NCBI GenBank assembly: GCA_045586925.1
Contig: JAZNBG010000035.1
Coordinates: 6,417 to 70,416 of the forward strand
DNA length: 64,000 bases
Source of the DNA: Clostridia bacterium
GTDB taxonomy: Bacteria > Bacillota > Clostridia > Monoglobales > Monoglobaceae
Reading direction: 5' to 3'
Both the position numbers and the translations under genes were made by a program. Of this stretch, positions 18,519 to 56,104 are shown one piece after another. Under the pieces are notes generated by a model. It searched no databases. It was not told the origin of the DNA and saw only the letters and a program-made list of their open reading frames with translations. Positions within the stretch are counted from its first letter, which is position 1. Each line of letters opens with the position of its first letter.

Positions 18519-19142
18519 GTGGATAAAAGACTTGGCGTACAAACTGTAAAAATGGAGCATCCTGTCAATATTCTTTCTGTGGCAAGTGTGGCAGGACAAA
18601 AGGAGTCGCAAGGCCCTTTGGCACAGCATTTTGATATCATTATGGAAGATGCCGAATGGGGCGAGCAAACTTGGGAAAAAACCGAGAGTAAGATGCAAAA
18701 ATCAGCGGTTATACGTGCTGTTGAAAAGGCTAGGGTTGACATTAAGGATATAAACTATCTTTTTGCAGGAGACCTTCTTAATCAGTGTATCAGTTCAACC
18801 TTTGGGCTAATGGATTTTGATATTCCCTTTATGGGAGTTTACGGTGCTTGCTCTACAATGGCAGAGACAATCGGACTTTCGGCAATAGCTATTGACGGCG
18901 GTTTTGCTAGGCTTGCGGCAGCAGTGACGTCAAGTCACTTCTGTACGGCTGAACGGCAGTACAGAAACCCGTTGGAATATGGTGGTCAGCGAACGCCTAC
19001 AGCACAATGGACTGTTACAGGCTCTGGGGCGGCAGTGCTTTCCAAAGAGGGGAAAGGCCCATATGTGACACATTTTACCTCGGGAAAGATTGTTGATTAT
19101 GGCATAAAGGATGCCAATAATATGGGTGCAGCGATGGCACCT
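18519..19142 (+). pseudogene. spoVAD: spoVAD 5' segment (codons 1-208 of a split gene)
   Basis: Thiolase-like SpoVAD N-terminal sequence (GACSTMAETIGLSA, TSSHFCTAERQYR). Homology ends at ...GAAMAP. The ORF then runs 8 unrelated codons to a stop at 19166. Confidence 0.9.
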
Positions 19143-19265
19143 GTAAGTGTTAAACTAACACCATAAGGCGATGTGCTAAATCTCTACAAATTATGCGCTT
19201 TTAAGCCTGATTTTGCATTTTGAGAGGTGATGGTTTAACACTTTTTATTATGGGAAGACGGAGGG

Positions 19266-19625
19266 GTGAAAGTGAGAAAAATTTATACTTATGGGAATGT
19301 ACAAAATTTTATAGAAAGAAGTGATGAAAAACTTAAAAACAAATTTCAAAATATTCTTGCCTATATCTCAAATGAGAAAAACGAACTTCGTGAACCTTAT
19401 GTGAGACATATTTCTCAAAACCGATTTAAAGGACTTTATGAAATAAGACTAAAGGTATCGGGAGCTATGTCAAGAGTTGTCTTTTCAAAGCAAGACGAAA
19501 ATATCATCCTTTTATATGCTTTTTATAAGAATGACAAGAAAGACACCAAAAGAGCACTTGAGCATTCGCTCAGGTTGTTAAATGACACAAGAAAAAATAA
19601 TTACAAGGAGGTACTTATAGCATGA
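19266..19625 (+). CDS. RelE/HigB-type toxin of the Gp49-like (DUF891) family
   Basis: FKGLYEIRLKVSGAMSRVVFSKQDENIILLYAFYKNDKKDTKRALEHSLRLL fits the Gp49/HigB pattern. No HTH antitoxin ORF follows. Confidence 0.6.
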   Translation: MKVRKIYTYGNVQNFIERSDEKLKNKFQNILAYISNEKNELREPYVRHISQNRFKGLYEIRLKVSGAMSRVVFSKQDENIILLYAFYKNDKKDTKRALEHSLRLLNDTRKNNYKEVLIA

Positions 19626-20671
19626 GGAAAATATTTGCAGTTAGTATAGTTTTGATAATTCTGTTGCTCGGGAGCGAAGTTTTTGCAGCATATATTGTTT
19701 CAGGTCAGGATATTTATATCAACGGCTCAAAAGCAGAAATGTCAGCAATAAATTTTAATGATAATAATTATGTGAAACTTCGGGATATTACAAAAGCATT
19801 GAATATTGAGATTACATACAATGCAGAAACAAATACTGTTTCAATCAATACCAACAAGCCTTACACAGAGGAAAATCCGAAAGTTGATTACATAAACGGG
19901 AAATCGTATGCAAGAGAAGATTTCACGCAAAAAGCTAATTCCGGTATTTTTAATGATGTGTATACAAGAGATGCTTATAATGCAATCAGGCAATCTATTA
20001 TTGATATTGCAGAAATTACAAATAATACCGATGAGAATGGATATAATGCAAATTATGAGTATGCTCACTTTGTTGATGACACATCTGACGGAATGGGAGA
20101 AACAATAGAAGCAATGAAATCCGTAACAGCAACAATGTTTGGTTATTACAATTTCAGTTTCGGTTATGAGCCAACAATATCAAACTTCTATGAATATCCC
20201 GGATACCGAATTTGCAAACCACAGATACATAAATACTTTGAACCAGCAAACAATGCAACCGACAGCTTTGTTGCAGAGATATCCAATTTTGCTGACCGAG
20301 AAAAAGTCAAACGGATTGCTGATTATATCTGCGAAAGGGTTGCATATAAGAATGAGAATGTTGCAGGAATAAATAAAGTATTTACAGGCACACCTCCTGT
20401 CAATGGAGTATGCGGTACTTATGCAGATGCATTTGTTTATCTTTGCCAACGAGCAGAAATTCCTTGCATATCAGTTGTTGATGATATTCACGCATGGAAC
20501 GAAGTGTATGTTGACGGCAAATGGTACACTACAGATATAAGCTATTATGATGTAGCAAGAACAGATGAATACCTGTTCCCTAAAAACTATCCTCGCACTG
20601 ATATAAACAAACAGAAAACAAATTTTACAAAAGAATTACTTGTTCCTGGAAGTACAAAAAGTACCGATTAA
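19622..20671 (+). CDS. Secreted transglutaminase-like cysteine-protease-fold protein with an N-terminal copper-amine-oxidase-like stalk domain
   Basis: Signal peptide MRKIFAVSIVLIILLLGSEVFA. NNYVKLRDITKALN stalk motif. Cys-His-Asp core in GVCGTYADAFVYLC ... IHAWNEVYVDGKWYTTD. Confidence 0.6.
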   Translation: MRKIFAVSIVLIILLLGSEVFAAYIVSGQDIYINGSKAEMSAINFNDNNYVKLRDITKALNIEITYNAETNTVSINTNKPYTEENPKVDYINGKSYAREDFTQKANSGIFNDVYTRDAYNAIRQSIIDIAEITNNTDENGYNANYEYAHFVDDTSDGMGETIEAMKSVTATMFGYYNFSFGYEPTISNFYEYPGYRICKPQIHKYFEPANNATDSFVAEISNFADREKVKRIADYICERVAYKNENVAGINKVFTGTPPVNGVCGTYADAFVYLCQRAEIPCISVVDDIHAWNEVYVDGKWYTTDISYYDVARTDEYLFPKNYPRTDINKQKTNFTKELLVPGSTKSTD

Positions 20672-20814
20672 AAACAAATTTTTAATCATATAGGGGGTTG
20701 CAAAAAAATTATTTTTTGGCCAAATTTTTAAATGTGTAGATATTGAAAAAATTGCACACCCCCTAAATGTGCTAAAAACGCAGTAATACAGGCGTTTTCA
20801 GGATGTGCAGAATT

Positions 20815-21227: not shown

Positions 21228-21256
21228 GTAGATAACCTAAAATGGAGGTCATGTAT

Positions 21257-22648
21257 ATGTTTATAGGCAGAGAAAGAGAGCTTGAAGCTCTGAATAAGCT
21301 TTATAAATCAAATAAATTTGAATTTGCGGTTATCTATGGCAGACGCCGCGTTGGTAAAACTGCGCTCATAAATGAGTTTATAGATAACAAAAAAGCCATA
21401 TATTTTATGGGTGTTGAAAGCAATGCAAAGCAGAATCTTGAAAACTTCTCAAAAAGCATTATGGAGTTTGCAAGTGGTATTGAAACGGAATCCTCTTTCC
21501 TTTCGTTCCAGGCGGCGTTAGAGTATGTATTCAAGCTTGCGGAAAACGAAAGAATCATTCTTGCTATTGATGAATACCCTTATGTGGCTCGTTCATCAAA
21601 AAGCCTTGCATCTACTTTACAACTTCTAATTGATAAATATAAAGATACATCAAAATTGATGCTTATTCTCTGTGGTTCTTCTATGTCCTATATAGAAGAC
21701 CATGTGCTTGCATATAAAGCGCCTCTTTATGGCAGAAGAACAGCACAAATGAAACTTTTGCCATTTGACTTTGAGGAAACATGCAGATATTTCAAAAATC
21801 TATCTGATGAAGATAAAGCACTTATTTATGGCGTTGCAGGTGGCACACCGCAGTACCTTTTGCAGATGGACGATAAATTAAGCGTTGAAGACAATATAAA
21901 AAACACATACTTAAATCCAATTTCATTCTTGTATGAGGAACCAACTAATCTTTTAAAACAAGAAGTGCGTGAACCGGCTATTTACACTGCGATCATTACA
22001 GCTATTGCAACTGGCTCATCAAGAATGTCAGAGATTTCAAGTAAAGTTGGCGAAGATACAAATGTATGTGCAACTTATATTAAAAACTTGATTAATCTTG
22101 GCATTGTTCAGAAAGAAACACCGTATGGTGAAAAGGCATCTCGTAAGTCAGTTTACTCCATTGAGGACAATATGTTCCGCTTCTGGTATCGCTTTGTTCT
22201 TGAAAACAACTCAATCATTGCACGTGGTGCTGCTGATTTGGTTTACAAAAGAATTGAACCACATTTTTCTAACTATATGGGTAAGGTTTTTGAAGAAATT
22301 TGTAAACAGTATCTTTGGAAACAACTTCTTTCCGGTAACTGCCCTGTAGAGTTTACCTCTCTCGGCCGCTGGTGGGGTAATGATCCGAAAGAAAAGAGCC
22401 AAACTGAAATTGATATTATGGGAGAACAGGATAAAAACACAGCTCTCTTTGCAGAATGTAAGTGGACTAACGAAAAGGTTGACCTCGGTGTTTTAGAAAC
22501 ACTTATAAAACGAGGTAATTTGTTCTCATATAAAACAAAGCATTATTACCTGTTCTCAAAATCAGGATTTACAAAAGGTTGTATTGATAAGGCTAACGAG
22601 ATGAGTAATGTAAGTTTGATAGAGTTTGCGGATATGATGGAGGTATAG
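21257..22648 (+). CDS. AAA+ ATPase (Arch_ATPase type) with a C-terminal DUF234 nuclease-like domain
   Basis: The opening MFIGRERELEAL and Walker A GRRRVGKTAL, plus Walker B LAIDEYPY. The C-terminus EIDIMGEQDKNTALFAECKW resembles a PD-(D/E)xK motif. Confidence 0.65.
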   Translation: MFIGRERELEALNKLYKSNKFEFAVIYGRRRVGKTALINEFIDNKKAIYFMGVESNAKQNLENFSKSIMEFASGIETESSFLSFQAALEYVFKLAENERIILAIDEYPYVARSSKSLASTLQLLIDKYKDTSKLMLILCGSSMSYIEDHVLAYKAPLYGRRTAQMKLLPFDFEETCRYFKNLSDEDKALIYGVAGGTPQYLLQMDDKLSVEDNIKNTYLNPISFLYEEPTNLLKQEVREPAIYTAIITAIATGSSRMSEISSKVGEDTNVCATYIKNLINLGIVQKETPYGEKASRKSVYSIEDNMFRFWYRFVLENNSIIARGAADLVYKRIEPHFSNYMGKVFEEICKQYLWKQLLSGNCPVEFTSLGRWWGNDPKEKSQTEIDIMGEQDKNTALFAECKWTNEKVDLGVLETLIKRGNLFSYKTKHYYLFSKSGFTKGCIDKANEMSNVSLIEFADMMEV

Positions 22649-22649
22649 T

Positions 22650-24737
22650 ATGGCTAAGAAAAAGAATAAACATGAAGCATTGTCTGTTGGAAGATTAATT
22701 AACGAAGTTTTAGTCGATCAGCTAGGAATCCCATTTCGAAACATAGTTAATGATACAACTTTTTCAGATTTTACAGGTTCTAAAAGACCAGATATTTTAA
22801 TAGGAAATTTTGAATATACTGGATCAAACAATGAACAATATATAAAAAATCTTGTTGCATATGCAGAAGCAAAAGACATTACATGCAAAGTGGATGATAC
22901 TGAGTGGAAAGATGCGGTAAATCAAGGTAAAGAAAAGGCTGCAAAATTAGGATTACCATTTTTCGGTGTAACAAATTGTAAAACAACATATTTTTACAAT
23001 TTAAAAACCGGAAATAGAATTTCTTTAAACGGTAATGTCATCTATGAATTTCAGACATTGGATGTTTTTAGAATAATAAAAAAGCAATTAACCGAAAAAC
23101 CAAATGTTGATGATATAAAAATAGGTATAGATTCACTATCCTCTGTTTCAGAAGCTGTTTTCAACAAAAAACTTTGGGAGCTAAAAGAAGAATATCGTGC
23201 GATAGATTTCGAAAATAATACACAAAAAATAGATTTTACTGTAGGAATGATTGCGTTAGAATATTATGAAGAAAAAGCTGAGATAGATGGAACTAAAGAT
23301 AATTCTATGCAGTATTGGTCTACATGTAAGGCGATGATTCCCAATCCATATACATATGAAAACTCAAACACAATAACAACGATTTTAGTAACATATATAG
23401 ATAGACTTACTGGCGAAGAGTCGGAGTTTAAAGAATTTTCTCCGCTTTTAAAGAAGGTAAAGGAATTAATAAGCGGTCAGAAACCTATGATTAATTCTAA
23501 ACGTTTGCAATCTATATATTTTATTATTGATTCTATGCGACCTCTGCATGGTACGGGCTTTGACTTGTTCGGTGCAGTGTATGAAAATTTTGCAAACACA
23601 AAAGAGAAGAAGGATTTTGGTGAGTATTTTACAAGGCGACATTATGCACATGTTTTTGCGGAGTTATTGTTGCAGAAAGAAGATATTTTTAATTCCGAAT
23701 ATAAATTTTCTATTTTAGACCCAGCTTGTGGAACTGGCGGAATGCTTACAGAAAGTTTTAAGGTTTTGAAAAACAACTATGAATCTTCGGGTACATTTGA
23801 TCAAGAAGCACAAACTTTTTTGTCCGAAGAGTGCTTTTATGGAATAGATGTAAGAGGAGAAAATATTTCAAGAACCCGTTTAAATATGTTTTTGGTTGGT
23901 GATGGGCACACAAACATGCACTCTGATGACTCATTAAACCCAACAACAAAAACTGGGAAGAAATTTTTGAATAAAAAATATAAATATATCATAACAAACC
24001 CTCCTTATGGACCGGGTACAGAATTAGCAAACACAGATAGTATAAACTCTTATAGGTTCGAAATAGCGTTTATCTGTAGAATTATAGATCTCCTAGAAAG
24101 AAATGGTCAAGCGTGTATAATCACCCCTGATGGCATTTTGGAAAACCCTTCTTTGAAAAAGTTTCGAAATGAGATTTTGCAAACATGTGAAATATATGCA
24201 ATAGTTTCTTTACCCAAGTTTGCTTTTGCACCTTATACAAAAGAAAAAACATACGCATTATTCATTAGAAAACTACATGATAGAGCGTCCTCGGAGCAAA
24301 CCAATAAAAAATTGCCTACTGGGAAATTCCAATCAACTCCAATTTGGATGTATATCATTGATAACGATGGCTTTGCTAATTCTGATAAGAGATTCCCTAC
24401 TAGACTTAGAGATTCAAGTCAAAGATGGCAGCATGATGAGGTTTCGGGTTATGCTGATAGCGAAGGTATAGAAAGAAAAAGTATTCTTGAACAGCGATGG
24501 TTAAATTTTGACGATACAGCTACGGGTGGAACATTGTGGATTGATGAAGATGGCATTGAAGTAAAAATGAGAAAAGGTGGCTTTGTACAAATTGACTCTA
24601 TTCGAAATAATGATTTTTTGACTTTACTTCCAGAATATTATCTAAGACCATATGAACCTAAGTTTATAACAGAGGAACAATTTAATGAAAGTATGGATAA
24701 TATTGAACGTGAGATAAAAGAGTTTTTTGGACTGTAG
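22650..24737 (+). CDS. Fused restriction endonuclease / N6-adenine methyltransferase (BcgI-A-like, type IIB/IIG)
   Basis: N-terminal PD...ExK candidate (RPDILI ... AYAEAKD). Methyltransferase motif I LDPACGTGGML and motif IV ITNPPYG. No HsdR gene nearby. Confidence 0.6.
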   Translation: MAKKKNKHEALSVGRLINEVLVDQLGIPFRNIVNDTTFSDFTGSKRPDILIGNFEYTGSNNEQYIKNLVAYAEAKDITCKVDDTEWKDAVNQGKEKAAKLGLPFFGVTNCKTTYFYNLKTGNRISLNGNVIYEFQTLDVFRIIKKQLTEKPNVDDIKIGIDSLSSVSEAVFNKKLWELKEEYRAIDFENNTQKIDFTVGMIALEYYEEKAEIDGTKDNSMQYWSTCKAMIPNPYTYENSNTITTILVTYIDRLTGEESEFKEFSPLLKKVKELISGQKPMINSKRLQSIYFIIDSMRPLHGTGFDLFGAVYENFANTKEKKDFGEYFTRRHYAHVFAELLLQKEDIFNSEYKFSILDPACGTGGMLTESFKVLKNNYESSGTFDQEAQTFLSEECFYGIDVRGENISRTRLNMFLVGDGHTNMHSDDSLNPTTKTGKKFLNKKYKYIITNPPYGPGTELANTDSINSYRFEIAFICRIIDLLERNGQACIITPDGILENPSLKKFRNEILQTCEIYAIVSLPKFAFAPYTKEKTYALFIRKLHDRASSEQTNKKLPTGKFQSTPIWMYIIDNDGFANSDKRFPTRLRDSSQRWQHDEVSGYADSEGIERKSILEQRWLNFDDTATGGTLWIDEDGIEVKMRKGGFVQIDSIRNNDFLTLLPEYYLRPYEPKFITEEQFNESMDNIEREIKEFFGL

Positions 24738-24746
24738 GAGGAATAA

Positions 24747-25901
24747 ATGAAATATCAAGTAAAAGATTATCCTATTTGTGATGCTATCTCTTGCATGAGT
24801 GGAAATTCTGGTTTAACAGAGGAATTTATATATAGTACGACACAGATAAAGGGTAAAAGGTATATAGTTTTATCCAGTGCTTTAGAAGAGGAAACAATGA
24901 TGGGCGAAGTTCCGATGTGTACTTTAAACGATAAACCAATTAAAGTCTTTGAAAATAAGGAAGGGCTACTGGTTGCCAGAAATGGCAGAGCCGGGACAAC
25001 AAGATATTTAACCCCAGGGCGATATACAATTAATGATCATGCATATATCCTTTCGGTTAAAAAAGGTTGTCCATATAAAATTGATCTGAGATGGTTGGCT
25101 ATTCAATATAAAACTGAATTTCTTTCATATTCATCAGCTTCAGATAATGGCACATGGAACAAAACTGGCTTTTTTAAAAATGTTACAATAGACGTTCCTG
25201 ATATTGATGAGCAGATACGAATCGTTAATATGGTAGAAAAGGCACAACAAACTATAGAAAAGATAAAAATAATTAAGAAGGATTTGCTTAAAGCATTTGA
25301 ACGCATAATTTCTGTCGAATATTCTAAATATGTTAAACGTAATATACCAATTAATGATGTTTTAGATTGTATGAGTGGCAATTCGGGATTAACATCCGAA
25401 TTCATATATAGCACTTTACATAAGCCAGGTAAAAGATTCAAAGTTTTGTCTGGAGCAACACAAGAAGAGAATTTATTAGGAGAAATCCCCAAATGTGCAA
25501 TAGACGATAAAATGATTAAAACTTTTGAAGATAAAGAAGGTCTCCTAGTTGTTAGAAAAGGGAAAGCAGGTGCTACAAAGTTTCTGCCAAAGGGTAACTA
25601 TACAATAAATGATGATGCATATATCTTGTCTGTAAAGCCGGACTTTGAAAAGTTGGTTGATATTAGGTGGATAAAGATTCATTGTAAAACAGACTTTATG
25701 AATTATTCATCATCTTCGGACAATGGTACATGGAACAAAACAGGCTTTTTTAAAAATGTTACAATAGACATTCCAGCGTTGGAAGAACAAAAACGTGTTG
25801 CAGCAACATATGAGAAGGCCGAAAAGTATTTTGAAAAAATACAAAAAATCGAAAAGCAACTAACAGAATTGTTGGATAAAAGGCTCTGTTCAGAATTGTA
25901 A
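24747..25901 (+). CDS. HsdS-like specificity subunit with two homologous target-recognition domains
   Basis: The two halves (aa ~10-190 and ~200-384) align throughout, for example CMSGNSGLTEEFIYST / CMSGNSGLTSEFIYST and SDNGTWNKTGFFKNVTID in both. Confidence 0.75.
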   Translation: MKYQVKDYPICDAISCMSGNSGLTEEFIYSTTQIKGKRYIVLSSALEEETMMGEVPMCTLNDKPIKVFENKEGLLVARNGRAGTTRYLTPGRYTINDHAYILSVKKGCPYKIDLRWLAIQYKTEFLSYSSASDNGTWNKTGFFKNVTIDVPDIDEQIRIVNMVEKAQQTIEKIKIIKKDLLKAFERIISVEYSKYVKRNIPINDVLDCMSGNSGLTSEFIYSTLHKPGKRFKVLSGATQEENLLGEIPKCAIDDKMIKTFEDKEGLLVVRKGKAGATKFLPKGNYTINDDAYILSVKPDFEKLVDIRWIKIHCKTDFMNYSSSSDNGTWNKTGFFKNVTIDIPALEEQKRVAATYEKAEKYFEKIQKIEKQLTELLDKRLCSEL

Positions 25902-26018
25902 TGATAGTCAGATGTGTGAAGTTTTTTGATTTGCATATACCAAGAGCTCAAAAAAACATAGACTTTAGATAAGATTGATGTTTAAGTGATTGAACTCTTC
26001 TTACAGGAGGGAATATAA

Positions 26019-26660
26019 ATGTGGAGAAAGTTCCGTTGGGATATGTTTGTTACATCATTTATCCCATTATGGTTTTCTATTATTGTTTTTAATCTATGGA
26101 AAGTAGTAGAAATTTCAATTGATGTTTGGGATAAGAAAAGCAAGTACATTGATAACATAGTAAATTGCATTGAAAAAAGCTATGTTGAACTCGGTGTTAT
26201 GCTTGTTGTTATTTTACTTGTTTGGATTAGTATTAGTGGAATTAGCTCTTTTATAAAGGAACGTAAGTCTACAGAAAATAATCCTAAAGGGAAAATAATA
26301 CGAGCAACTAAAGCTAACAAACTTTCTTCTGAGTTTTTGTTAGCATACATACTTCCTATGATAGCTTTTGACTTTGGAGAAATAAAGGATATAGTTTTGT
26401 TTGTTATATACTTTTCTGTATTGGCCTTTTTGTGCATAAGAAACAATAATATTTATACAAATATTCTTTTGGAATTTAAGGGTTATAAAATGTACAACTG
26501 CGATATTGAGTGTTCGGTGCTTGAAAAGAAAAAGATTTATCACGACAGCTTGATAATAAGTGAAGTAGACTTAACTCAGATGGAAGAAAATGAGATACCA
26601 TATTGGGATTTTGACAAATATATTTATATAGCAATAAACGAGGTGGAAGATAGTGAGTAA
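26019..26660 (+). CDS. Four-TM membrane protein, KwaA-like (candidate Kiwa component)
   Basis: 213 aa with 4 predicted TM helices. It overlaps the next gene by 8 nt. Size and architecture match KwaA as I recall it, but no sequence comparison was possible. Confidence 0.35.
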   Translation: MWRKFRWDMFVTSFIPLWFSIIVFNLWKVVEISIDVWDKKSKYIDNIVNCIEKSYVELGVMLVVILLVWISISGISSFIKERKSTENNPKGKIIRATKANKLSSEFLLAYILPMIAFDFGEIKDIVLFVIYFSVLAFLCIRNNNIYTNILLEFKGYKMYNCDIECSVLEKKKIYHDSLIISEVDLTQMEENEIPYWDFDKYIYIAINEVEDSE

Positions 26661-27585
26661 AACCGTACTAAAGACAATATGTGAATGTGGAAAAAATGGT
26701 CAATATTCATGGAGTTTGTTTTTCTTCAAAACAGACAAAAGAAATAAACAGCCTTATAAAATGTTTAAGGTTCGTTTTAAAAACGCTAATTATCTTACTA
26801 CATATGCAGCAAACTTAATTGAGACTGTTGATAAGTTTCAAATTGAACCTATAAGCGATGTCCAGGATTACGATGGTGAGAATTCAAAAGTATCATGTGA
26901 TAAGATTGAATTGTCTAATCAACTAATTAGCGAACAGTGGACCTTATTCACCGAAGCTGTTGCAAGTGCCGCTGATGGTAAAGCCGACGGAAGAATTAAT
27001 GGTTATATATTGTACGGACAATCTTTAAAAGAAGATGACAAGCCTATTACACTTGTTAAAGTGGCAAATCCGATAACAAAGCTTACAAACAAAAAAAGTG
27101 TAATATTCACGACTACTGCAGATGATGAACTGGAATTAATGTCTGATGATGTATGTAGGCTTTATCTTACTACTGACTTTATTGTTTTTGATGGAACCAT
27201 GTATACATTCAACCATACATTTGAAACAATCTTTAATCTTGAGAAAACAATGGCTAAGGTGAAGAATGATGCTATAGAAGAGATATTAAGTACAAATGCT
27301 TTTTCTAATCCTGAAGAATTTAAAGCATTGGCAGGAAAATACAAATCATCACGCACCTTTATAACTCTTAAAAAAGAACGTGTAAATAGAATTAAAGATA
27401 AACGCAGTAGGAAGAAAGTCGCAGAAATGCTCAAACTTCCACTTGGTAGTGATGGAGAGTTTAATATAACAAAACCAGAAGATGCGTCTCTTTTATTGCG
27501 ATATCTGTGTTTTAAAATATTCCAGGATAATGAGACAATGGATGTGCTTGAGGCTAATACTGTAAACAAATTAAATCTTGCATAA
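26653..27585 (+). CDS. Soluble 310-aa protein, KwaB/DUF4868-like (candidate Kiwa component)
   Basis: Translationally coupled to the membrane protein upstream. Size is typical of KwaB. The assignment rests on architecture only. Confidence 0.35.
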   Translation: MSKTVLKTICECGKNGQYSWSLFFFKTDKRNKQPYKMFKVRFKNANYLTTYAANLIETVDKFQIEPISDVQDYDGENSKVSCDKIELSNQLISEQWTLFTEAVASAADGKADGRINGYILYGQSLKEDDKPITLVKVANPITKLTNKKSVIFTTTADDELELMSDDVCRLYLTTDFIVFDGTMYTFNHTFETIFNLEKTMAKVKNDAIEEILSTNAFSNPEEFKALAGKYKSSRTFITLKKERVNRIKDKRSRKKVAEMLKLPLGSDGEFNITKPEDASLLLRYLCFKIFQDNETMDVLEANTVNKLNLA

Positions 27586-27832
27586 GGTTCAATAAAAAGA
27601 CATGGAGAAATCAAACTCCACAGCTTTGCAGGAATATATGTTTTCTGAAACAAAATGAATATAAAATATACATTCATTTTAGGTGAGAAATATACAAATT
27701 TTACTCCCGAGGGGGTTGGGAAAAACGGAAATTTTAGCGTTTTTTGAAAAGTAGTCAAAAAAGCATAACAACTCCACATATCAAATGCCGCTTATCCCTA
27801 GTAAAATAGCCACATTCAGGACTTGTAAAAAT

Positions 27833-28161
27833 TTAATTTTCAGACCACTTTTCCCACTAGTAGGGAGGGTTGGGGAAAACGCTTTTTGGTGTAATATTAA
27901 AAACGGTAAAAAATACACAAGTCGCCAAAGCATTTTTGCAGGGAATGTAGTTAGACGTAACGAGGTAATTTTGAGTGAAAACCAGTTAAACGTACAAAAG
28001 TAGTTACAAGAGCTTTGGAGGAAATAGCGAGAACAAAACTTGCGGATATAGTTAGCAAAAGACGGAGCAATAAAGTTGAAACACACAACGATTTGAAGGA
28101 ATAAAACATAAATAAATTCAGCACCGTTGAAAGATTTAAAATCTTTTGAGGGTGCTTTTTC
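27833..28161 (+). repeat. Direct repeat copy B (~320 bp) ending in a terminator hairpin
   Basis: Homologous to 20815-21137. It ends with a GCACC...GGTGC hairpin (28121-28155) plus T5, immediately upstream of the resolvase promoter (TGaTATAAT, hexamer 28193-28198). Confidence 0.8.
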
Positions 28162-28233
28162 TATAAACAAAATAATAACACCTGTCCGGTGATATAATAT
28201 CATAAAAAGCCATTATGGTTTGGAGGTGTTGTT

Positions 28234-28908
28234 ATGACATATGGATATGTTAGAGTGTCCTCAAGTGATCAAAATGTAGACAGACAATTAATTGAAATGG
28301 AAGGATTAACAATCCCCGTACAAAATATTTTTATAGATAAACAATCGGGTAAAGACTTTAAGCGCCCACAATATATTAAATTGCTTGAGGTTCTTAAAAA
28401 AGGTGATTTATTATATGTAAAGTCAATAGACCGTTTGGGGCGAAACTATAAAGAAATACTGGAACAATGGCAAATGCTGACTAAAGAAATGGAAGTTGAT
28501 GTTGTTGTAATAGATATGCCACTTTTAGATACACGAACTGCTAAAGATTTGCTCGGTACATTCATAGCGGACTTGGTTTTACAAGTGCTTTCTTTTGTGG
28601 CTCAAAGCGAGCGTGAAAACATAAAGAAACGCCAAGAAGAAGGCATAAAAGCTGCCAGACTTCGTGGCGTTAAATTTGGACGACCTGTTATTCCCGTGCC
28701 GGATAATTTTGAGTTTCTTGTTGAACAATGGGAACATGGGGAAATATCCGCCGATTATGTGGCTCAGAAAAGCGAAATGAGTGAATCAACCTTTTATAGA
28801 AGATTAAAAGAATTAAGGAAAAACACAAAACAAAAATCACTGTCAAATGGTACACTTTTTGACAGTGATTATTTTTTGTTGATATATACTGTTAAAAACA
28901 GATTTTAA
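28234..28908 (+). CDS. Small serine recombinase (resolvase/invertase family)
   Basis: Catalytic N-terminus YGYVRVSSSDQNVDRQ, SIDRLGRN, and a C-terminal HTH (SESTFYRRLKE). The last ~25 codons read through a terminator hairpin. Confidence 0.85.
   Translation: MTYGYVRVSSSDQNVDRQLIEMEGLTIPVQNIFIDKQSGKDFKRPQYIKLLEVLKKGDLLYVKSIDRLGRNYKEILEQWQMLTKEMEVDVVVIDMPLLDTRTAKDLLGTFIADLVLQVLSFVAQSERENIKKRQEEGIKAARLRGVKFGRPVIPVPDNFEFLVEQWEHGEISADYVAQKSEMSESTFYRRLKELRKNTKQKSLSNGTLFDSDYFLLIYTVKNRF
28835..28878 (+). terminator. Rho-independent terminator overlapping the resolvase 3' end
   Basis: 13-bp perfect stem AATCACTGTCAAA / TTTGACAGTGATT followed by ATTTTTTG. Confidence 0.7.
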
Positions 28909-29051
28909 CACAAAAATTATACTATATTCCCCTTGAAAAGTCAATTAAATGATTTTATTTCTTACCAATCTCCAGTTGAACTGCCTTTGTCAAAAAGTGT
29001 ACTTTTTGGTAAAGCTATCAAGTTATTAGCTAATGGAGGTGTTCGACAAGA

Positions 29052-29552
29052 ATGGAAAACAACAGAGAACAGGAACTGAGGAAGCATAGATGCTGTTTTA
29101 CAGGTCATAGACCTGATAAAATGATACAAGGCGAAAAAGAGATTAAACCGCTACTTGAGGCGGCTATAGATAAGGCAATAGCTGAAGGTTATGTAACTTT
29201 TTTAACGGGCATGGCAATGGGGACAGATATATGGGCTGCTGAAATAATTTTAGATAGAAAGAAAAAGAACAAAAATTTACATCTTATTTGCGCACTGCCG
29301 CATCCTGGCTTCGATAGCAAAAGAAGTGTTGCAGAGAAAATACGGTTTGCAAAAATACTAAAGAAAGCAGATATAGTAAGAGAAATAAGCAATCACTTCT
29401 TCAAGTCATGTTACCAAAAACGAAATGAATGGATGGTTGACAGATCAAATTTGGTTATAGCGGTATTCAACGGAGAACCAAGTGGGACTAAAAATACGGT
29501 CATTTACGCTCAAAGGAAGGGCGTAGAAATCAATAATGTTTTAAAAAACTAA
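29052..29552 (+). CDS. SLOG-fold protein of the DUF1273/YpsA family
   Basis: CCFTGHRP, FLTGMAMGTDIWAAE and the ALPHP pattern resemble B. subtilis YpsA-type SLOG proteins. Confidence 0.6.
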   Translation: MENNREQELRKHRCCFTGHRPDKMIQGEKEIKPLLEAAIDKAIAEGYVTFLTGMAMGTDIWAAEIILDRKKKNKNLHLICALPHPGFDSKRSVAEKIRFAKILKKADIVREISNHFFKSCYQKRNEWMVDRSNLVIAVFNGEPSGTKNTVIYAQRKGVEINNVLKN

Positions 29553-29637
29553 ATATACAAATACAACAAATCATTGACAACTTCATTATATTATTTTAAA
29601 GCAGTGGTAGAATATATACATAAAGGAGTTGTCGAAT

Positions 29638-30477
29638 ATGAAAAGAATTACAAACGAATTAATTAAGAAATTCAGAGAATATCTGTTAAGTGAAGAAAAG
29701 GCAGTAGCAACGATAGAAAAGTATATCCACGATGTTCTTGTGTTTATGACTTGGCTTGCAGGAGCAGAGGTTACCAAAATGGCAGTTCTTGAATATAAAC
29801 AGGAACTAACTGAGAAGTATGCTCCCACAAGTGTTAATGCCGCGCTTTCTTCGTTGAATAGTTTCTTTGTTTTCAATGAATGGTACGATTGTAAAGCGAA
29901 AGCTGTGAAAATTCAAAAGCAGATTTTTGCCAATAAAGAGAAGGAATTATCAAAGGCTGAATACGAAAGACTGCTTTTAGCGGCAAAACAAAAGAAAAAT
30001 CAAAGACTTTACTTTCTTATGCAGACGATATGCAGCACCGGGATACGTGTATCTGAGTTGAGATTTATAACAGTTGAAGCTGTTTTAAGAGGACAGGCAC
30101 ATATTAACTGTAAAGGTAAGATGCGGGTTGTTATTCTCACAAATCAACTCTGTAAAATGCTGAAGAACTATATAAAAGATAATAAAATAATAAGTGGCTC
30201 GGTTTTTGTTACTAAAACAGGTAAGCCACTTGATCGTTCTAATATATGGTCGGATTTGAAAAAACTCTGTGAATGTGCGGGAGTAGATAAAGAAAAAGTT
30301 TTTCCACATAATTTTAGGCATTTGTTTGCGCGCACTTATTATACTTTGCAAAAAGATATAGTTCGTCTTGCTGATATCCTCGGTCATTCCAATGTAAACA
30401 CTACAAGGATTTACACAATGGAAAGCGGAGAGATGCATCGCAAGCAATTGCAAAAACTTGGATTACTGATATGTTAA
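29638..30477 (+). CDS. Tyrosine site-specific recombinase (XerC/D-like)
   Basis: SAM-like N-terminal domain. Catalytic residues are in TGIRVSEL (Arg), HNFRHLFA (His-x-x-Arg) and GHSNVNTTRIYT (His, Tyr). ATG 29638 follows AAGGAG. Confidence 0.85.
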   Translation: MKRITNELIKKFREYLLSEEKAVATIEKYIHDVLVFMTWLAGAEVTKMAVLEYKQELTEKYAPTSVNAALSSLNSFFVFNEWYDCKAKAVKIQKQIFANKEKELSKAEYERLLLAAKQKKNQRLYFLMQTICSTGIRVSELRFITVEAVLRGQAHINCKGKMRVVILTNQLCKMLKNYIKDNKIISGSVFVTKTGKPLDRSNIWSDLKKLCECAGVDKEKVFPHNFRHLFARTYYTLQKDIVRLADILGHSNVNTTRIYTMESGEMHRKQLQKLGLLIC

Positions 30478-32569: not shown

Positions 32570-32589
32570 AAGAGGTGAAAAGACAGAAT

Positions 32590-37239: not shown

Positions 37240-37255
37240 ATAGGAGGTGTATAAT

Positions 37256-38044: not shown

Positions 38045-38045
38045 A

Positions 38046-38303: not shown

Positions 38304-38317
38304 GGAGTGTAAAAAAT

Positions 38318-38614: not shown

Positions 38615-38632
38615 GAATTTGGAGGTGGAAAT

Positions 38633-38743: not shown

Positions 38744-38809
38744 AGATTAACTTAGGGTTATAAAATAATTATTATAACAAAATTATTTTTCGAAAGGAGC
38801 AAATTTATT

Positions 38810-39121
38810 ATGGCAAACGCATGGTCAGTAACCACAGAAAGACTTACATCTTCTGCAAACATTTTGGAGGAAAAAGTCGCAACGTACAATTCAGAATGGG
38901 GCAAACTTTACACAGAGGTTCAGAATTTAAAATCCTCACAGTGGCAGGGTATCGCAAGTGATGCATTCAACGCAAAACTTGAGTCCTACAAAAATGATTT
39001 TGAAGAATTAGCAAAAGTATTGAACAGCTATAAAGATTTCTTGAAATCAGCAGCAGAAAGATATGAGAAAACAGAAGAAGCAGTAAAAGATGCAGCTGGA
39101 AATCTTAATGCCGGAATATAA
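38810..39121 (+). CDS. WXG100-family protein (paralogue 2)
   Basis: 103 aa with central W-Q-G (SSQWQGIASDAF) and a C-terminal YEKTE (YxxxE) motif. Confidence 0.8.
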   Translation: MANAWSVTTERLTSSANILEEKVATYNSEWGKLYTEVQNLKSSQWQGIASDAFNAKLESYKNDFEELAKVLNSYKDFLKSAAERYEKTEEAVKDAAGNLNAGI

Positions 39122-39145
39122 ATAAAATTTTAGGAGGATTTTAAA

Positions 39146-39445
39146 ATGGCTACAATTAAAGTTGATTCAACAGTAATGAGAGACAAAGCAGGCACATTTA
39201 AGAATGTTGCTAACACAATAAAAAATTTAACAGATGAAATGACTCAGGAGATAGAAAGTTTACGTTCAGCATGGGAAGGCGAATCCGCTGAAGCAACTGT
39301 ATCAAAATTTAAAAGTTTAGCTTCAACATTTGAAGAAAAGTTCAATACAATTAACCAGTATGCATCTTTCCTTGAGGAAGCAGCTAATGCTTATGACGAT
39401 GCAGAAAAGGCTGTCGCTCAGGGAGCAGAAGGCACACAGGCTTAA
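39146..39445 (+). CDS. esxA: WXG100-family protein, EsxA-like (paralogue 3)
   Basis: 99 aa with central W-E-G (SAWEGESAEA) and a C-terminal YDDAE (YxxxE) motif. Strong AGGAGG RBS. Confidence 0.8.
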   Translation: MATIKVDSTVMRDKAGTFKNVANTIKNLTDEMTQEIESLRSAWEGESAEATVSKFKSLASTFEEKFNTINQYASFLEEAANAYDDAEKAVAQGAEGTQA

Positions 39446-51316: not shown

Positions 51317-51556
51317 ATGAATCTTATAGTTGCAATCGGAGGAGTAATTTTAAGTCTGATAATAAATTTCTTACCTACTATAATTGCTTTTGTAAAAGGA
51401 AGTTATAAAAAAATTAATGTTTTATTATTAAATGGCATTCCATATGCTTTGTCTGTTGTGTTGATTTTTATTTCGATCCCTGTACTGAACCCAATAATTG
51501 CTTTAATAAATATTGTTTCATGGGTTGCAGCTTTAATAATGGCTTTGAAAAATTAG
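51317..51556 (+). CDS. Small membrane protein, superinfection-immunity (Imm, PF14373-like) family
   Basis: FLPTIIAFVKGSYKKINVLLLN ... VSWVAALIMAL fits the pattern of that family as I recall it. Confidence 0.5.
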   Translation: MNLIVAIGGVILSLIINFLPTIIAFVKGSYKKINVLLLNGIPYALSVVLIFISIPVLNPIIALINIVSWVAALIMALKN

Positions 51557-51662
51557 AGGTTTTTTATACATAAGAACAATAAAAGAATATTATTTTAAAA
51601 AATTAATAAAAAAAACAACTCCACCTATTGTAAAGATAAAAATGATGTGTTAAAATATGCTT

Positions 51663-51850
51663 GTAAAAACTCATGATGAGTTTCAGGTAAGAAGATTACA
51701 CAGGTAAGAAGTTAAGCAGGTTTAAGATGTTACTCAAAGGGACAAGTCTGCCCTTTTGCAGAAAACGCACCTGTGATTGTCATAAGTGGAAACAAAAAGA
51801 AAGCAAACGCAAGTAATGAACCTACGGGGGATTTCGGTGTTTGCTTTTAT
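51663..51850 (+). ncRNA. Candidate small RNA unit 1 (own promoter and terminator)
   Basis: Promoter TTGTAA (51628-51633), 17 nt, TGtTAAAAT (hexamer 51651-51656). The body has GGTAAGAAG twice plus TTAAGCAGGT, then the GGGACAAGTCTGCCC motif with a T-run (51739-51757). The second hairpin is AAGCAAAC/GTTTGCTT with a T-run ending at ~51850. Confidence 0.3.
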
Positions 51851-51972
51851 TTTATCAAGTAGTAGAAAATAAAAATGCTTCGAGTATAGAAAAAACATTG
51901 AAAAAGTGAAACGATATGTTTATTTTCCCTCCAGGTATTGTAAATCAGGAAATAATAATGTAAAATGTACTT

Positions 51973-52056
51973 GTAAAAATGGTAAGCAGTTACACGGGTA
52001 AGCAGTTAAGCAGGTTAGCATAAAAATTGTTGGCGGGATAAGTCTGTCCGTTTTTA
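51973..52056 (+). ncRNA. Candidate small RNA unit 2 (paralogue of unit 1)
   Basis: Promoter TTGTAA (51938-51943), 17 nt, TAAAAT (51961-51966). The body has GGTAAGCAG twice plus TTAAGCAGGT, then GGGATAAGTCTGTCC followed by T5. Confidence 0.3.
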
Positions 52057-52674
52057 GCTATCTGCTTTAATGGAAAGTGTGAAAAGCATTATCCAATTTT
52101 ACGGAGATTAAAATTATATAGGCGGTAACAAAGAATGTAGAAACTATCCTATGGGATAAGACTGCATTCTTTTTGTTTTTAGAAGATAGATTTATCGGTT
52201 AGGAATAAAAGTTTTTATGAAGTCCTATACGGCACTTTTTACACTGTCTTGTAAAAGGATGTACGGACACAAAGATGTTTTGGTTGGAGAAACAAAAATG
52301 CAGAGTTTGCCATCGGATTTGTACGCATAGACTTTAAAAAATCCGTAGAGGTTGGACAGAACCTTGACATAGTAGCGGCTGTGAAAATATTAAATTACAT
52401 ATGTCACCGCTATGACATATTTCAGCATCGGCATAAATATATGCACCTGAGTTTAGCAGGGATGCTACCGCAGGAGAGTTTCTCCAACTACCTTTTGCGG
52501 GAATATTACTAACCGAGCAATATGCTTTAGATAAAATGGAGACAGGAACAAAGAAAACGTCTCAAAATACTGCAAATACTGGGTTTCTCACACAGTCATA
52601 CCGGGAAACACAGAGGTAACGAGGTGAAATTCCAACGGGATAGGTATGCCCTATGCTGAGGAAAGGACATTACA

Positions 52675-53535
52675 ATGTGTAAAAACATATACAAGAACTT
52701 GGAAATACAGTACAAGAAATTATTCCGCCATTTAAAGGTCGGAAGTTTCAAAACAAGAGAACGTTACGGAAAGGCGTTTAAGCGATTCATGGTATTTTTG
52801 GCAAGAGAATATCATTTGCAAAAGTTGGCAAACATTTCAGAAAAGCATATATACGCTTATGTAAGCTATATGCAAAATAAAGGTTTGTCTGCCTCAACAA
52901 TAAAGACCGAGCTTGCGGCAATACGATTTTTCCACGACAGTATGCCGTACACAAGAAGCACCTTGCCGACAAATGATGAACTCGAACTTGAAAAACGTAA
53001 TTTCGGCGGAGTTGACAGAACTTGGTCCGAAATAGAGTTTGCAAAAATGCTTGCAGCATCAGTGATGGGAGAATATCCGGAGTATTCGGGAATGCTTTAC
53101 CTTGGAAGATATGCCGGACTTCGTTTGGAAGAATGTTTCCGCATTGACACCAACGATGCTAAAAATGCTCTTGAAACGGGACAGCTACTGGTTAAAGGCA
53201 AAGGTGGACTCACAAGGTATGTACCGATTTGCTATCAACTTGAGATTGTATTTCGTGATATGTTAAAGATTACACCTATCGGACAAAAGCTATTTGTAAG
53301 ACCGTATGACAAGACACATCTTGCAATGAAGCGTTTGCAAAATTTTATTGCATACCACAGAAAAGAGTTTACTGAAAACAGAATTACCTTTCATGGACTT
53401 CGACATACATATGCTCACGAACAGTATGAGAAGTTCATAAAAGAAGGTTGTTCGGAATTTGATGCCCGAAAAAAGGTATCGGAGCTGCTCGGTCATCATC
53501 GTGATGATGTAACGAGAATATATTTAGCCGAATAA
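52675..53535 (+). CDS. Tyrosine recombinase/integrase
   Basis: SAM-like N-terminal domain (HIYAYVSYMQNKGLSASTIKTELAAIRFF). GLRLEE (Arg), HGLRHTYA (His-x-x-Arg) and LGHHRDDVTRIYL (His, Tyr). Confidence 0.8.
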   Translation: MCKNIYKNLEIQYKKLFRHLKVGSFKTRERYGKAFKRFMVFLAREYHLQKLANISEKHIYAYVSYMQNKGLSASTIKTELAAIRFFHDSMPYTRSTLPTNDELELEKRNFGGVDRTWSEIEFAKMLAASVMGEYPEYSGMLYLGRYAGLRLEECFRIDTNDAKNALETGQLLVKGKGGLTRYVPICYQLEIVFRDMLKITPIGQKLFVRPYDKTHLAMKRLQNFIAYHRKEFTENRITFHGLRHTYAHEQYEKFIKEGCSEFDARKKVSELLGHHRDDVTRIYLAE

Positions 53536-53582: not shown

Positions 53583-53789
53583 ATGATAAGTACTTCTGAT
53601 ATCGATAATTTCGTAGATTTGAAAAATTTGGCTATTGATAAAACAAAACCAATTGAGGAGCGGCTAAAGCAATTTATCACGGATGTAAAAAATCCGTATA
53701 TGGTAAGAGTTGGCGATACACTGGTACGAATAGAATTTACCGGTGGAAGAAACTTTTCAGATGCTTTAACTGCAGCTTTCGGTGCATAA
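53583..53789 (+). CDS. 68-aa protein of unknown function immediately upstream of the large serine recombinase (possible directionality or accessory factor)
   Basis: AAAGGAG RBS. The suggested role rests on position only. Confidence 0.3.
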   Translation: MISTSDIDNFVDLKNLAIDKTKPIEERLKQFITDVKNPYMVRVGDTLVRIEFTGGRNFSDALTAAFGA

Positions 53790-53897: not shown

Positions 53898-55580
53898 ATG
53901 ACAAATACAAAATATGCGATGTACTTAGAGCAGCCTCCAGTATTTAAAATACAGTGGAGAGCTGCTCTTTATATAAGACTTTCAAAAGAAGATGGCGACA
54001 AAGGAGAAAGTAACTCTGTAACATCGCAGAGAGAAATATTAAAAGAATTCTTAAAGCTTCGCCCTGACATTGAACTCTATGACATTTATGTAGATGATGG
54101 TTGGTCGGGTACAAACTTTGACAGACCTGATTTTACACGAATGATGGAAGATATTTATTCCGGCAATGTAAATTGTGTTATAGTAAAGGATTTATCGAGA
54201 TTCGGAAGAAACTATACTGATAGCGGAAATTATCTTGACAATGTGTTTGTGAGGCTCAGAGTTCGTTTTATTGCACTTAATAACGGTGTTGATACCGCAT
54301 CAAACAATATGAACGCTGCAACACAGTGTATTTCTGTAGGTGTTACTAATGTTATCAACGAAAGTGTTGCCGCAACAACTTCGGTGAATGTTCGCGGAAC
54401 ACTGAATGTAAACCGTGCTCAAGGTAAATTTATAGGTTCTTTTCCAACATACGGATATTTAAAAGATCCTAATGACCATCATAAACTTATTGTTGATGAA
54501 GAAGTTGCGCCTGTTATTCGGTCAATATTTGAACGATTTGTTGCAGGTAAAAGTATAATCGGCATTGCAAAGGAACTAAACGAAGAAGGTATTCCTAATC
54601 CTTCAATGTATAAGAAACTTAAAGGTTTTAATTATAGACATCCCGTAGGAAAAAGCAATGACGGATTATGGCCGGACAGTTCTGTGCGAAGAATACTGCG
54701 AAATGAAATGTATATCGGCAATATGGTGCAAGGTAAAAATACAACAATAAGTTATAAGATTAAGCAATGCAGGCCAATTCCTAAAGAGGATTGGATTATT
54801 GTTGAAAACACTCACGAGGCTATTGTAAGTAAAGAGATATTTGAAAAAGCACAGTCTCTTTTCAACAAAAACATACGAGTCGCACCACAGAAAAAAGAAG
54901 TAGATTTATTTTCTGGTTTTGTTCGCTGTGCTGATTGTCATAGAACTATGAATAAGAAAACCAATGTCCATTCTTATGCAACATATCATTATTATCGTTG
55001 TTCTACTGCAAGAAAGATGAAAAAAAGTGCTTGTGGTAATCATACGATAAGAATTGATAAGCTGGAAGAAGCGGTATTAGTTGTTATTCAGAACATGGTT
55101 GATGTGGCAATTGAAATGGATGATATTCTAAAGAGAATCAATTCCAATGGTGAAAGAAAAAAAGAATCCAAACATCTTAAAAAGGCAATCGAAACACAAA
55201 CTGCTGAAAGGGATAAATGCAAACGAATGATGGTTGATTTGTATCCTGACTGGAAGAATGGCATTATTACTCAAGAGGAATATTTAATGTTAAAGCAGGG
55301 TATTTCAGAAAAAATAGAAACTCTTGATAAAATGATAGAAAATCTCACCGAAACAGCAAGAAGTTACGAGGAAGGAGTAAATGATGAAAATGAATTTATA
55401 GCCCATTTCAAGGCTCATGGCAAAATAAAAGCTTTAACCCGAAATCTTCTGCTTGAGTTGGTTGACGAGATTTTAGTTCACGAGGGCGGAGATATTACCG
55501 TGAAATTCAAGTTTAACGATGCCTATAAAGAAGTTATGGAATATATTGAAATGAATAAGGATGTTATTAAGACTGCTTAA
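53898..55580 (+). CDS. Large serine recombinase (SpoIVCA/SprA/phage-integrase type)
   Basis: 560 aa. Resolvase catalytic domain (AALYIRLSKEDGDKGESNSVTSQ, VKDLSRFGRN), a recombinase domain, a zinc-ribbon (CADCHRTM...YYRCST..ACGNH) and a coiled-coil tail. It lies 130 bp from the right junction. Confidence 0.9.
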   Translation: MTNTKYAMYLEQPPVFKIQWRAALYIRLSKEDGDKGESNSVTSQREILKEFLKLRPDIELYDIYVDDGWSGTNFDRPDFTRMMEDIYSGNVNCVIVKDLSRFGRNYTDSGNYLDNVFVRLRVRFIALNNGVDTASNNMNAATQCISVGVTNVINESVAATTSVNVRGTLNVNRAQGKFIGSFPTYGYLKDPNDHHKLIVDEEVAPVIRSIFERFVAGKSIIGIAKELNEEGIPNPSMYKKLKGFNYRHPVGKSNDGLWPDSSVRRILRNEMYIGNMVQGKNTTISYKIKQCRPIPKEDWIIVENTHEAIVSKEIFEKAQSLFNKNIRVAPQKKEVDLFSGFVRCADCHRTMNKKTNVHSYATYHYYRCSTARKMKKSACGNHTIRIDKLEEAVLVVIQNMVDVAIEMDDILKRINSNGERKKESKHLKKAIETQTAERDKCKRMMVDLYPDWKNGIITQEEYLMLKQGISEKIETLDKMIENLTETARSYEEGVNDENEFIAHFKAHGKIKALTRNLLLELVDEILVHEGGDITVKFKFNDAYKEVMEYIEMNKDVIKTA

Positions 55581-55586
55581 ACAAAA

Positions 55587-55618
55587 GGCTCCTGCAGGTA
55601 TAATAAAATGCAGGAGTC
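55587..55618 (+). terminator. Candidate terminator after the recombinase gene
   Basis: GGCTCCTGCA / TGCAGGAGTC stem (one G-U pair) with a 12-nt loop and a weak T tail. Confidence 0.4.
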
Positions 55619-55711
55619 TTACTTTGTGAATTTTCACATAAAAACACACGTAGAATTATAGAAAACAAACAAAAATAAAAAATTTATGGTGTACCCTTGA
55701 CATTTTCCCCT

Positions 55712-56104
55712 GCGGCGGCAGATACCTTGGCAGCGCATTTTAAAGACACGGGCAGACAACCTGACTTTTATGACCTGATTTTATCGGGTGATTTAGGAAT
55801 TGTGGGCAAGGCGGCATTAATTGACCTGATGTACGAAAAAGGATACAGAATATCAAGTAATTATGACGATTGCGGTTGTATGATTTTTGACATAGACAAT
55901 CAGGATATGCATGCTGGCGGTTCGGGTTGCGGGTGTCTGGCGGTAACGTTGTGCGGATATATTATGGATATTATTAAGGCGGGAAAACTGAAAAACGTGC
56001 TTTTTATGGGGACGGGAGCATTACTCAGTCCCACATCAACGCTGCAAGGCGGAACAATTCCATCGGTGGCACACGCGGTGGCAATTACTGCAGAGAGGGG
56101 GTAG
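55712..56104 (+). pseudogene. spoVAD: spoVAD 3' segment (codons 209-338 of the split gene)
   Basis: From AAADTLAAHFKDTGRQPDFYDLILSGDL onward it matches the SpoVAD C-terminal half (GGSGCGCLAV, TGALLSPT). There is no RBS or plausible own start. It is in frame with the 5' segment if 19142 is joined to 55712. Confidence 0.9.

Follow-up and report, generated by a model that had tools for sequence, protein, structure and literature searches.

What brought a 36.6-kb island into the sporulation gene spoVAD, and where exactly does the island begin and end? The locus lies in a 64,000-nucleotide stretch of Clostridia bacterium DNA (contig JAZNBG010000035.1; hereafter the window, the whole stretch analyzed). 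A first-pass annotation of this DNA had pointed out that the two ends of the island, when fused, resemble the element-borne attachment site (attP) of a large serine recombinase, and that a gene for such an enzyme lies close to one end. Follow-up analysis of the window and of related loci indicated that positions 19140-19166 and 55684-55710 are very probably the core parts of the left and right attachment sites (attL and attR) of the island, which would have entered its host target (attB) in spoVAD by means of its own TnpX-like large serine recombinase. The host genes and the element are arranged as follows.

18067-18516, + strand: spoVAC of the host (NCBIfam TIGR02838 spore_V_AC, 184.8 bits, over the cut-off).
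18519-19141, + strand: 5' fragment of spoVAD of the host.
19142-55710, + strand: integrated element of 36,569 bp, the left CC being counted as host.
55709-56104, + strand: 3' fragment of spoVAD of the host.
56110-56475, + strand: spoVAE of the host (NCBIfam TIGR02839, 151.8 bits).

The left junction reads ...GCAGCGATGGCA-CCTG-TAAGTGTTAAACTAACACCATAAGG, with CCTG at 19140-19143, and the right junction reads ...TTATGGTGTACCCTTGACATTTTCC-CCTG-CGGCGGCAG, with CCTG at 55709-55712. Since the flanking bases differ between the left and right junctions (A and C, respectively, before CCTG; T and C after it), the shared identity is exactly 4 bp. Joining 18519-19139 to 55709-56104 yielded a 338-amino-acid SpoVAD that aligned without gaps, at 92-93% identity, to the intact homologues P0125 and P0122. 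In its interrupted form, the 5' open reading frame reads on into the element to a TAA at 19164-19166 and specifies a product of 215 amino acids with the tail VSVKLTP. The G+C content of the element was approximately 33%, versus approximately 42% for its flanks. An empty site was found in a related genome (L020, GCA_045646865.1) whose gene order, spoVAC-spoVAD-spoVAE-miaB-ylbF-mutS, matches that of the window. Its uninterrupted spoVAD reads ...GCGGCAATGGCA-CCTG-CGGCGGCTGAT... (ATGGCA-CCTG-CGGCGGC), which corresponds to the left flank plus the right flank, with the target exactly restored and no target duplication. This sequence independently placed the boundaries inside CCTG, so that the limits proposed from the window alone were borne out and the element boundaries can be taken as established. 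The attachment sites consist of the following parts.

19121-19139, + strand: B arm of attB (host side of attL), positions -20 to -2, encoding N-M-G-A-A-M-A.
19140-19141, + strand: crossover dinucleotide CC in attL, the first two bases of a Pro codon.
19142-19166, + strand: P' arm of attP (left end of the element), positions +2 to +26, TGTAAGTGTTAAACTAACACCATAA.
19166-19189, + strand: 24-nt block GGCGATGTGCTAAATCTCTACAA, just outside the P' arm.
55684-55708, + strand: P arm of attP (right end of the element), positions -26 to -2, TTATGGTGTACCCTTGACATTTTCC.
55709-55710, + strand: crossover dinucleotide CC in attR.
55711-55729, + strand: B' arm of attB (host side of attR), positions +2 to +20, encoding (P)-A-A-A-D-T-L.

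The sequences TTATGGTGT (55684-55692) and ACACCATAA (19158-19166) form a perfect inverted repeat, whose axis falls between the two C's at a distance of 17 nt from either arm. Over the 52 bp of the fused ends, 17 of 25 positions were complementary about this CC axis (all nine outer positions and eight of the 16 further in), and the count was 7/25 about CT and 3/25 about TG. The annotated arms, their spacing and the further inner matches were thus confirmed at the exact coordinates. The description of the site as an imperfect palindrome of approximately 50 bp, centered on a non-palindromic dinucleotide, likewise agreed with this symmetry, and also with the conservation among relatives, which stops approximately 25 bp to each side. 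Chance was estimated from 200,000 random fusions of element-internal DNA, each scored on all three axes. The probability of at least 17/25 complementary positions was 1.05e-4 and that of a perfect run of at least nine was 3.4e-4; the corresponding binomial value was 2.6e-5. The 9-mer TTATGGTGT is not unique by itself, occurring three times within the window, and the significance therefore lies in the geometry rather than in the word. No second P-like or P'-like site was present in the window.

Two genes next to the right end form the putative integration module.

53583-53789, + strand: DUF6870 protein of 68 amino acids (Pfam PF21757, 65.8 bits).
53898-55580, + strand: large serine recombinase of 560 amino acids, with Resolvase, Recombinase, Zn_ribbon_recom and weak DUF4368 matches.

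The recombinase open reading frame is full length and all domains are present. Matches to PF00239 (69 bits), PF07508 (94 bits) and PF13408 (61 bits) exceeded the Pfam cut-offs, and the DUF4368 match (23 bits) fell under its cut-off of 25 bits. An RLS motif surrounds the presumed catalytic serine and aligns with that of TnpX. The closest relatives with solved structures were the TnpX catalytic domain (2mhc, E-value 2.4e-26) and SprA of SPbeta. The stop codon ends at 55580, which leaves 103 nt to the P arm and 128 nt to the crossover, in line with the proximity of gene and site noted earlier. A DUF6870 gene, encoding 68-128 amino acids, immediately preceded the serine recombinase gene in all related loci examined (L001, L003-L013, L049-L055), and its copies shared 14 invariant residues across 31-78% identity. 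This synteny makes the DUF6870 protein a candidate accessory or directionality factor that may take part in recombination. No paper mentioning DUF6870 was found in the literature, and a single-sequence AlphaFold model of the protein (predicted local distance difference test score, pLDDT, of 56) was too poor to use. TnpX needs no directionality factor (PMC5704250); since TnpX-like recombinases can excise without one, the 53583-53789 product may be unneeded.

Homologues of the recombinase at 72-93% identity were abundant in gut metagenomes and in Oscillospirales genomes; one of these, P0072 (72% identical to the window recombinase), was indexed in more than 1,200 blocks. Nearly every related locus had a DUF6870 gene before the recombinase and a 3' fragment of spoVAD after it. 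The host genes further downstream varied from locus to locus, which indicated independent hosts. P0072 rides on conjugative elements with TraC/TraG-like genes, and cargo varied among loci. A right-arm consensus, ATGGTG(T/C)ACCCTTGAC(A/T)T(T/C)TTCC-CC, was kept in 26 GTDB species genomes and approximately 20 metagenome loci, and the rest of the intergenic region was essentially unalignable (49% identity in a global alignment). The 26 loci were obtained by scanning one genome per GTDB species with the P-arm pattern; the organisms included Acutalibacteraceae, Oscillospiraceae, Oscillibacter, Lawsonibacter, Ruminococcus and Congzhengia. Carriers available in culture are Oscillibacter valericigenes An860 and An890 and Lawsonibacter sp. 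LCP25S3_F5. Together with loci found earlier, the 26 loci gave 39 right junctions with 37 distinct host arms, and seven further junctions were added later. Among the distinct junctions, 34 of 37 fitted the spoVAD pattern CCNGCNGC, all at the same codon. The target DNA encodes the near-invariant SpoVAD segment N-N-M-G-A-A-M-A-P-A-A, which explains the broad host range. As for the other three, L046 probably represents a divergent spoVAD, and L009 and L029 are clear secondary sites. Both of the latter are insertions of the integrative and conjugative element (ICE) type, in a BPD_transp_1 permease gene (L009, 11683-11900) and outside spoVAD in Oscillibacter valericigenes An860 (L029, 4855-4990). 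A G comes next after CC at these two sites, which are probably pseudo-attB. The outer P' block CACCATAAGGCGATGTGCTAAATCTCT was not found in JGI metagenomes, and the elements seem confined to animal-gut data.

The left end was followed through truncated SpoVAD proteins (215-216 amino acids, ending in PVSVKLTP or PVNVRLSP), which made up 8 of the 120 best SpoVAD matches. A short-query protein search for such tails added 13 small fragments, three of which were useful. A P' arm identical to that of the window was present in three other hosts (L014, L018 and L055); variants occurred in L047 and, more diverged, in L056, L057 and L058. All five P' arm types start right after GCN-CC, have CTG....TGTT..A.T...AC.ATA in common up to +25, and are unrelated beyond. 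On the P side, conservation begins at approximately -24. These limits define two half-sites of approximately 25 bp around CC, the size of a serine-integrase attP. In L057, TGCACCAT at +17 to +24 is the exact complement of the ICE-type P arm ATGGTGCA, a possible sign that the two arms covary at position 18, although the left and right ends did not turn up together on one contig (the L057 contig measures 579 bp). The 24-nt block outside the P' arm (GGCGATGTGCTAAATCTCT(A/G)CAA) was perfectly or almost perfectly kept in the window, L014, L018, L047 and L055, in L047 despite three substitutions in the inner arm. It was lacking in the other subfamilies (L056-L058) and is thus confined to the subfamily of the window and L047. 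A scan of the left junction for promoters and terminators yielded no promoter-like match and nothing that would account for the block.

One of these loci, L055 (GCA_965334595.1, 10622-19974), is a complete sister element of 9,351 bp with both junctions. Its recombinase was 86% and its DUF6870 protein 55% identical to those of the window, its cargo (an SLH-domain protein, a serpin and DUF6076) was unrelated, and its 52-bp attP was identical, with the same 17/25 symmetry; removal of the element yielded a SpoVAD of 336 amino acids. An identical attP combined with unrelated cargo indicated that the attachment sites, the recombinase gene and the DUF6870 gene together constitute a portable integration unit.

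Genuine sites do not by themselves make the window copy mobile, and the copy may instead be a fixed, immobile remnant that has permanently inactivated spoVAD in its host. Such a remnant would fit the failure to find an excised form or an isogenic empty site, as well as the lack of conjugation or phage genes of the element's own. The full-length recombinase with all domains and the RLS motif argues against it, as do the identity of both arms to those of elements in other hosts and the occurrence of the same recombinase proteins (P0024 and P0072) in several host contexts, from which recent mobility of the family was concluded. A remnant is therefore considered unlikely, and we infer that the window copy is still active.

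The position of strand exchange within CCTG was derived from the related junctions. The base that follows CC tracked the Pro codon of the host and was T, C, G or A. Even P arms identical to that of the window were followed by different bases (...TTCC-CC-GGCG in L025, CC-CGCC in L039 and CC-AGCC in L033). All five known left arms bring their own TG after CC. Before CC, the window has C in attP and A in attB. Integration thus succeeded with an attP/attB mismatch at the third position, which must lie outside the exchanged dinucleotide. Together, the host-dependent base after CC and the A/C difference before it placed the crossover at CC, with which the Pro codon of ...A-M-A-P-A-A... begins, on the same axis that the symmetry had given. 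From the window alone, exchange at CT or TG, with the palindrome axis off by 1-2 bp, was formally possible, as attL and attR share all four bases. This alternative is very improbable: identical P arms also occur next to Pro codons that read CCG, CCC or CCA, where the third base would mismatch, the five P' arms supply a TG of their own, and the symmetry drops to 7/25 and 3/25 on the shifted axes. The annotated axis was thereby upheld. Within the shared CCTG, the TG takes no part in the exchange and is shared by coincidence, the host codons CCT-GCG happening to agree with the TG of the element itself.

In the LI/A118 integrase of Listeria, positions 16-24 of each attP half-site contain a motif recognized by the zinc-ribbon domain, and the attB copy of this motif lies 5 bp nearer to the center (PMC3783163). 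In the window, the corresponding outer motifs of attP are TAACACCAT at 19156-19164 in the P' arm and ATGGTGTAC at 55686-55694 in the P arm. When the motif (G/T)(T/A)ACACCAT, which occupies +16 to +24 of both attP arms, was slid along the 34 distinct spoVAD B' arms, matches peaked at an inward shift of 5 bp, with 5.4-5.6 of nine positions versus a mean of approximately 2.2 (range 1.0-3.7) at other offsets. This peak arises from the D-T-(I/L) codons, typically GA(C/T)-ACC-AT; the window copy in the B' arm is AGATACCTT at 55720-55728. The B arm carries a weaker inward copy, ATGGGTGCA at 19122-19130, in which ATGGGTG at -19 to -13 has one extra base relative to ATGGTG at -24 to -19 of the P arm. 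As judged from these alignments, the 5-bp inward shift is the specific signature expected of large serine recombinases, and it supported the assignment of the palindrome to that class of sites.

Immediately upstream of the DUF6870 gene lies another recombinase gene, outside the conserved integration module.

52675-53535, + strand: Xer-like tyrosine recombinase.

Tyrosine recombinases require an identical overlap of 6-8 bp. The element contains two genes of the Phage_integrase family, at 52675-53535 and 29629-30477, the former adjoining the DUF6870/serine recombinase pair, and one of these enzymes might have performed the integration, with the dyad being incidental. This proposal is hardly tenable. 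Relatives inserted at the same nucleotide have the serine recombinase and DUF6870 and no tyrosine recombinase at that end (none was found beside the serine recombinase in any of the related loci), attL and attR are identical over just 2-4 bp, and the arm length, the asymmetric center and the 5-bp motif shift fit the serine type. Approximately 1.1 kb just upstream of the tyrosine recombinase gene (51556-52675) has no + strand open reading frame of at least 50 amino acids. That the inverted repeat is a chance feature of A+T-rich ends with no role in recombination, as the three occurrences of TTATGGTGT in the window might suggest, can be dismissed in view of the geometry-aware estimate of approximately 1e-4 and of the retention of both arms, amid diverged neighboring DNA, with recombinases down to 72% identity.

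In the reaction proposed for this system, the two ends of the free circular element would form an attP of approximately 52 bp, with half-sites of approximately 25 bp (P, ATGGTGTACCCTTGACATTTTCC; P', TGTAAGTGTTAAACTAACACCAT in reverse orientation) around CC. The attB would be the segment of spoVAD encoding N-M-G-A-A-M-A-P-A-A-x-D-T, of a predicted 40 bp or so, in which the Pro codon starts with CC. Each site would be bound by a recombinase dimer, whose zinc-ribbon domains would read the outer ATGGTG/CACCAT, at positions 19-24 in attP and approximately 5 bp nearer to the center in attB. All four strands would be cut at CC with a 2-nt stagger, after which the subunits would rotate and the ends would be rejoined, the non-palindromic CC setting the orientation. 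Recombination of attL with attR, in the opposite direction, would give back an unbroken spoVAD of 338 codons. The predicted joints are ...GACATTTTCC-CC-TGTAAGTGTT... in the attP circle and ...GCGATGGCA-CC-TGCGGCGGC... in the repaired attB.

Several observations weigh against integration by the serine recombinase as set out here. No circle junction was matched, either by the pattern ACCCTTGACNTNTTCCCCTGTAANTGTTA in JGI metagenome contigs and IMG/VR or by the 81-nt reconstructed attP among INPHARED phages and PLSDB plasmids, and no species was found to have both a strain that carries the element and one that lacks it. In the B arm, the outer motif is present as a weak copy (ATGGGTG, 4/9). Furthermore, the 34 B' arms are homologous spoVAD sequences, so that the 5-bp shift is effectively one observation, and the pairing of motif and zinc-ribbon domain is inferred by analogy with the Listeria enzyme.

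These sequence-level features are those that define large-serine-recombinase attachment systems, of which the spoVAD system appears to be an ordinary member. It shares with the phage-type serine integrases (A118/LI, phiC31, Bxb1 and SPbeta SprA) the order of Resolvase, Recombinase and zinc-ribbon domains, an imperfectly palindromic attP of approximately 50 bp, a non-palindromic 2-bp crossover, an attB that has only the central dinucleotide in common with attP, and an outer motif at approximately 16-24 in attP that lies 5 bp inward in attB. Unlike those integrases, it belongs to a non-phage element, has a possibly DUF4368-like C-terminal region, comes with no known directionality factor and has a weak B-arm motif. 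TnpX and TndX, of Tn4451/Tn4453 and Tn5397, respectively, resemble it in the location of the recombinase gene at the end of the element and, for TnpX, in the closest solved catalytic domain; the weak, sub-threshold DUF4368 match may point the same way. Like the island, their elements are integrative elements of Clostridia unrelated to phages; on the TnpX/TndX side, a circle serves as the intermediate and 2 bp are exchanged. TnpX and TndX exchange at GA and accept looser target sites, whereas the window family uses CC, targets a single codon of spoVAD and carries a conserved DUF6870 gene alongside.

A serine-recombinase element that splits a sporulation gene, and whose precise excision would rebuild that gene, is also reminiscent of the sporulation intervening elements (skin in sigK, SPbeta in spsM, gin in gerE, vfbin in spoVFB, vrin in spoVR and Yin in yabG). 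Known intervening elements sit in genes that are expressed in the mother cell, and thereby persist in the spore genome (PMC6957869). In contrast, spoVAD is a forespore gene, the spoVA operon being sigmaG-dependent and forespore-expressed in C. difficile (PMC3789822), and the window family includes conjugative elements across many genera. A further parallel is provided by serine-recombinase integrative mobilizable elements of conserved, dispensable genes, such as those in rumA of streptococci, which also show site-specific insertion within a gene by a single serine recombinase, very short direct repeats and variable cargo (PMC5704250); the target gene and the recombinase lineage differ from those of the window family. 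No paper that combines spoVAD with attB or with a serine recombinase was found in the literature.

The cargo identified the element as a defense and type VII secretion island that carries a TnpX-like recombinase and a DUF6870 gene. It encodes a HigB/Gp49-like toxin, a transglutaminase-like protein, an ATPase/DUF234 protein, type I restriction-modification methylase and specificity proteins, a KwaB-like protein, a small resolvase, two tyrosine recombinases, TetR and SPFH proteins, an EssC-like FtsK/FHA ATPase with three WXG100 proteins (type VII secretion), a PP2C phosphatase, two Ser/Thr kinases and beta-lactamase-like proteins. In a defense-like block at 21242-30477, the ATPase/DUF234, type I methylase, specificity subunit, KwaB-like and small resolvase genes are accompanied by genes for a YpsA/SLOG protein and for the second tyrosine recombinase, which might shuffle specificity genes. 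At 32575-39445, the gene for the EssC-like ATPase (1554 amino acids) is followed by the three WXG100 genes, with the PP2C phosphatase and the two Ser/Thr kinases further on; this region is a type VII secretion cluster on a mobile element. No convincing capsid, tail, terminase or conjugation genes emerged when the cargo was scanned with Pfam and PHROGs, and no relaxase or oriT was identified in the element. A prophage was ruled out by this lack of convincing phage genes, by the absence of P-arm pattern matches in IMG/VR and by the low identity (<40%) of the best phage homologues of the recombinase.

These results provide base-pair-exact ends, together with a predicted minimal attP (approximately 52 bp) and attB (approximately 40 bp), for an uncharacterized recombinase lineage that moves varied cargo among gut Oscillospirales, including a defense/type VII secretion island, a 9-kb SLH/serpin island and conjugative elements. 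The pair may add an orthogonal integrase/att combination for engineering Clostridia. The results also aid annotation of mobile elements in gut metagenomes, where a split spoVAD could be mistaken for a pseudogene or for cargo. A catalogue of gut mobile elements lists SpoVAC, SpoVAD and SpoVAEb as island cargo in Faecalibacterium prausnitzii and Roseburia intestinalis (PMC6907783), and some of these calls might instead reflect elements inserted in spoVAD.

For the hosts, carriage may entail a sporulation defect, or a need to excise the element in the germ-line compartment. It is conceivable, though rather improbable, that the spoVAD-targeting module represents the first family of intervening elements in a forespore-expressed, and thus germ-line, sporulation gene. 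The module would then act either as a reversible sporulation switch, with carriers conditionally unable to load dipicolinate, or by excision in the forespore followed by re-integration or escape, with DUF6870 as a new directionality factor. The data are equally open to the alternative that spoVAD is a safe landing site with a broad host range, conserved yet dispensable in vegetative growth. As spoVAD is required for dipicolinate uptake, carriage of the element may influence how spores form and, through that, how gut anaerobes are transmitted; wider importance would follow if carriage were to control sporulation, or if DUF6870 were to prove a new directionality factor.

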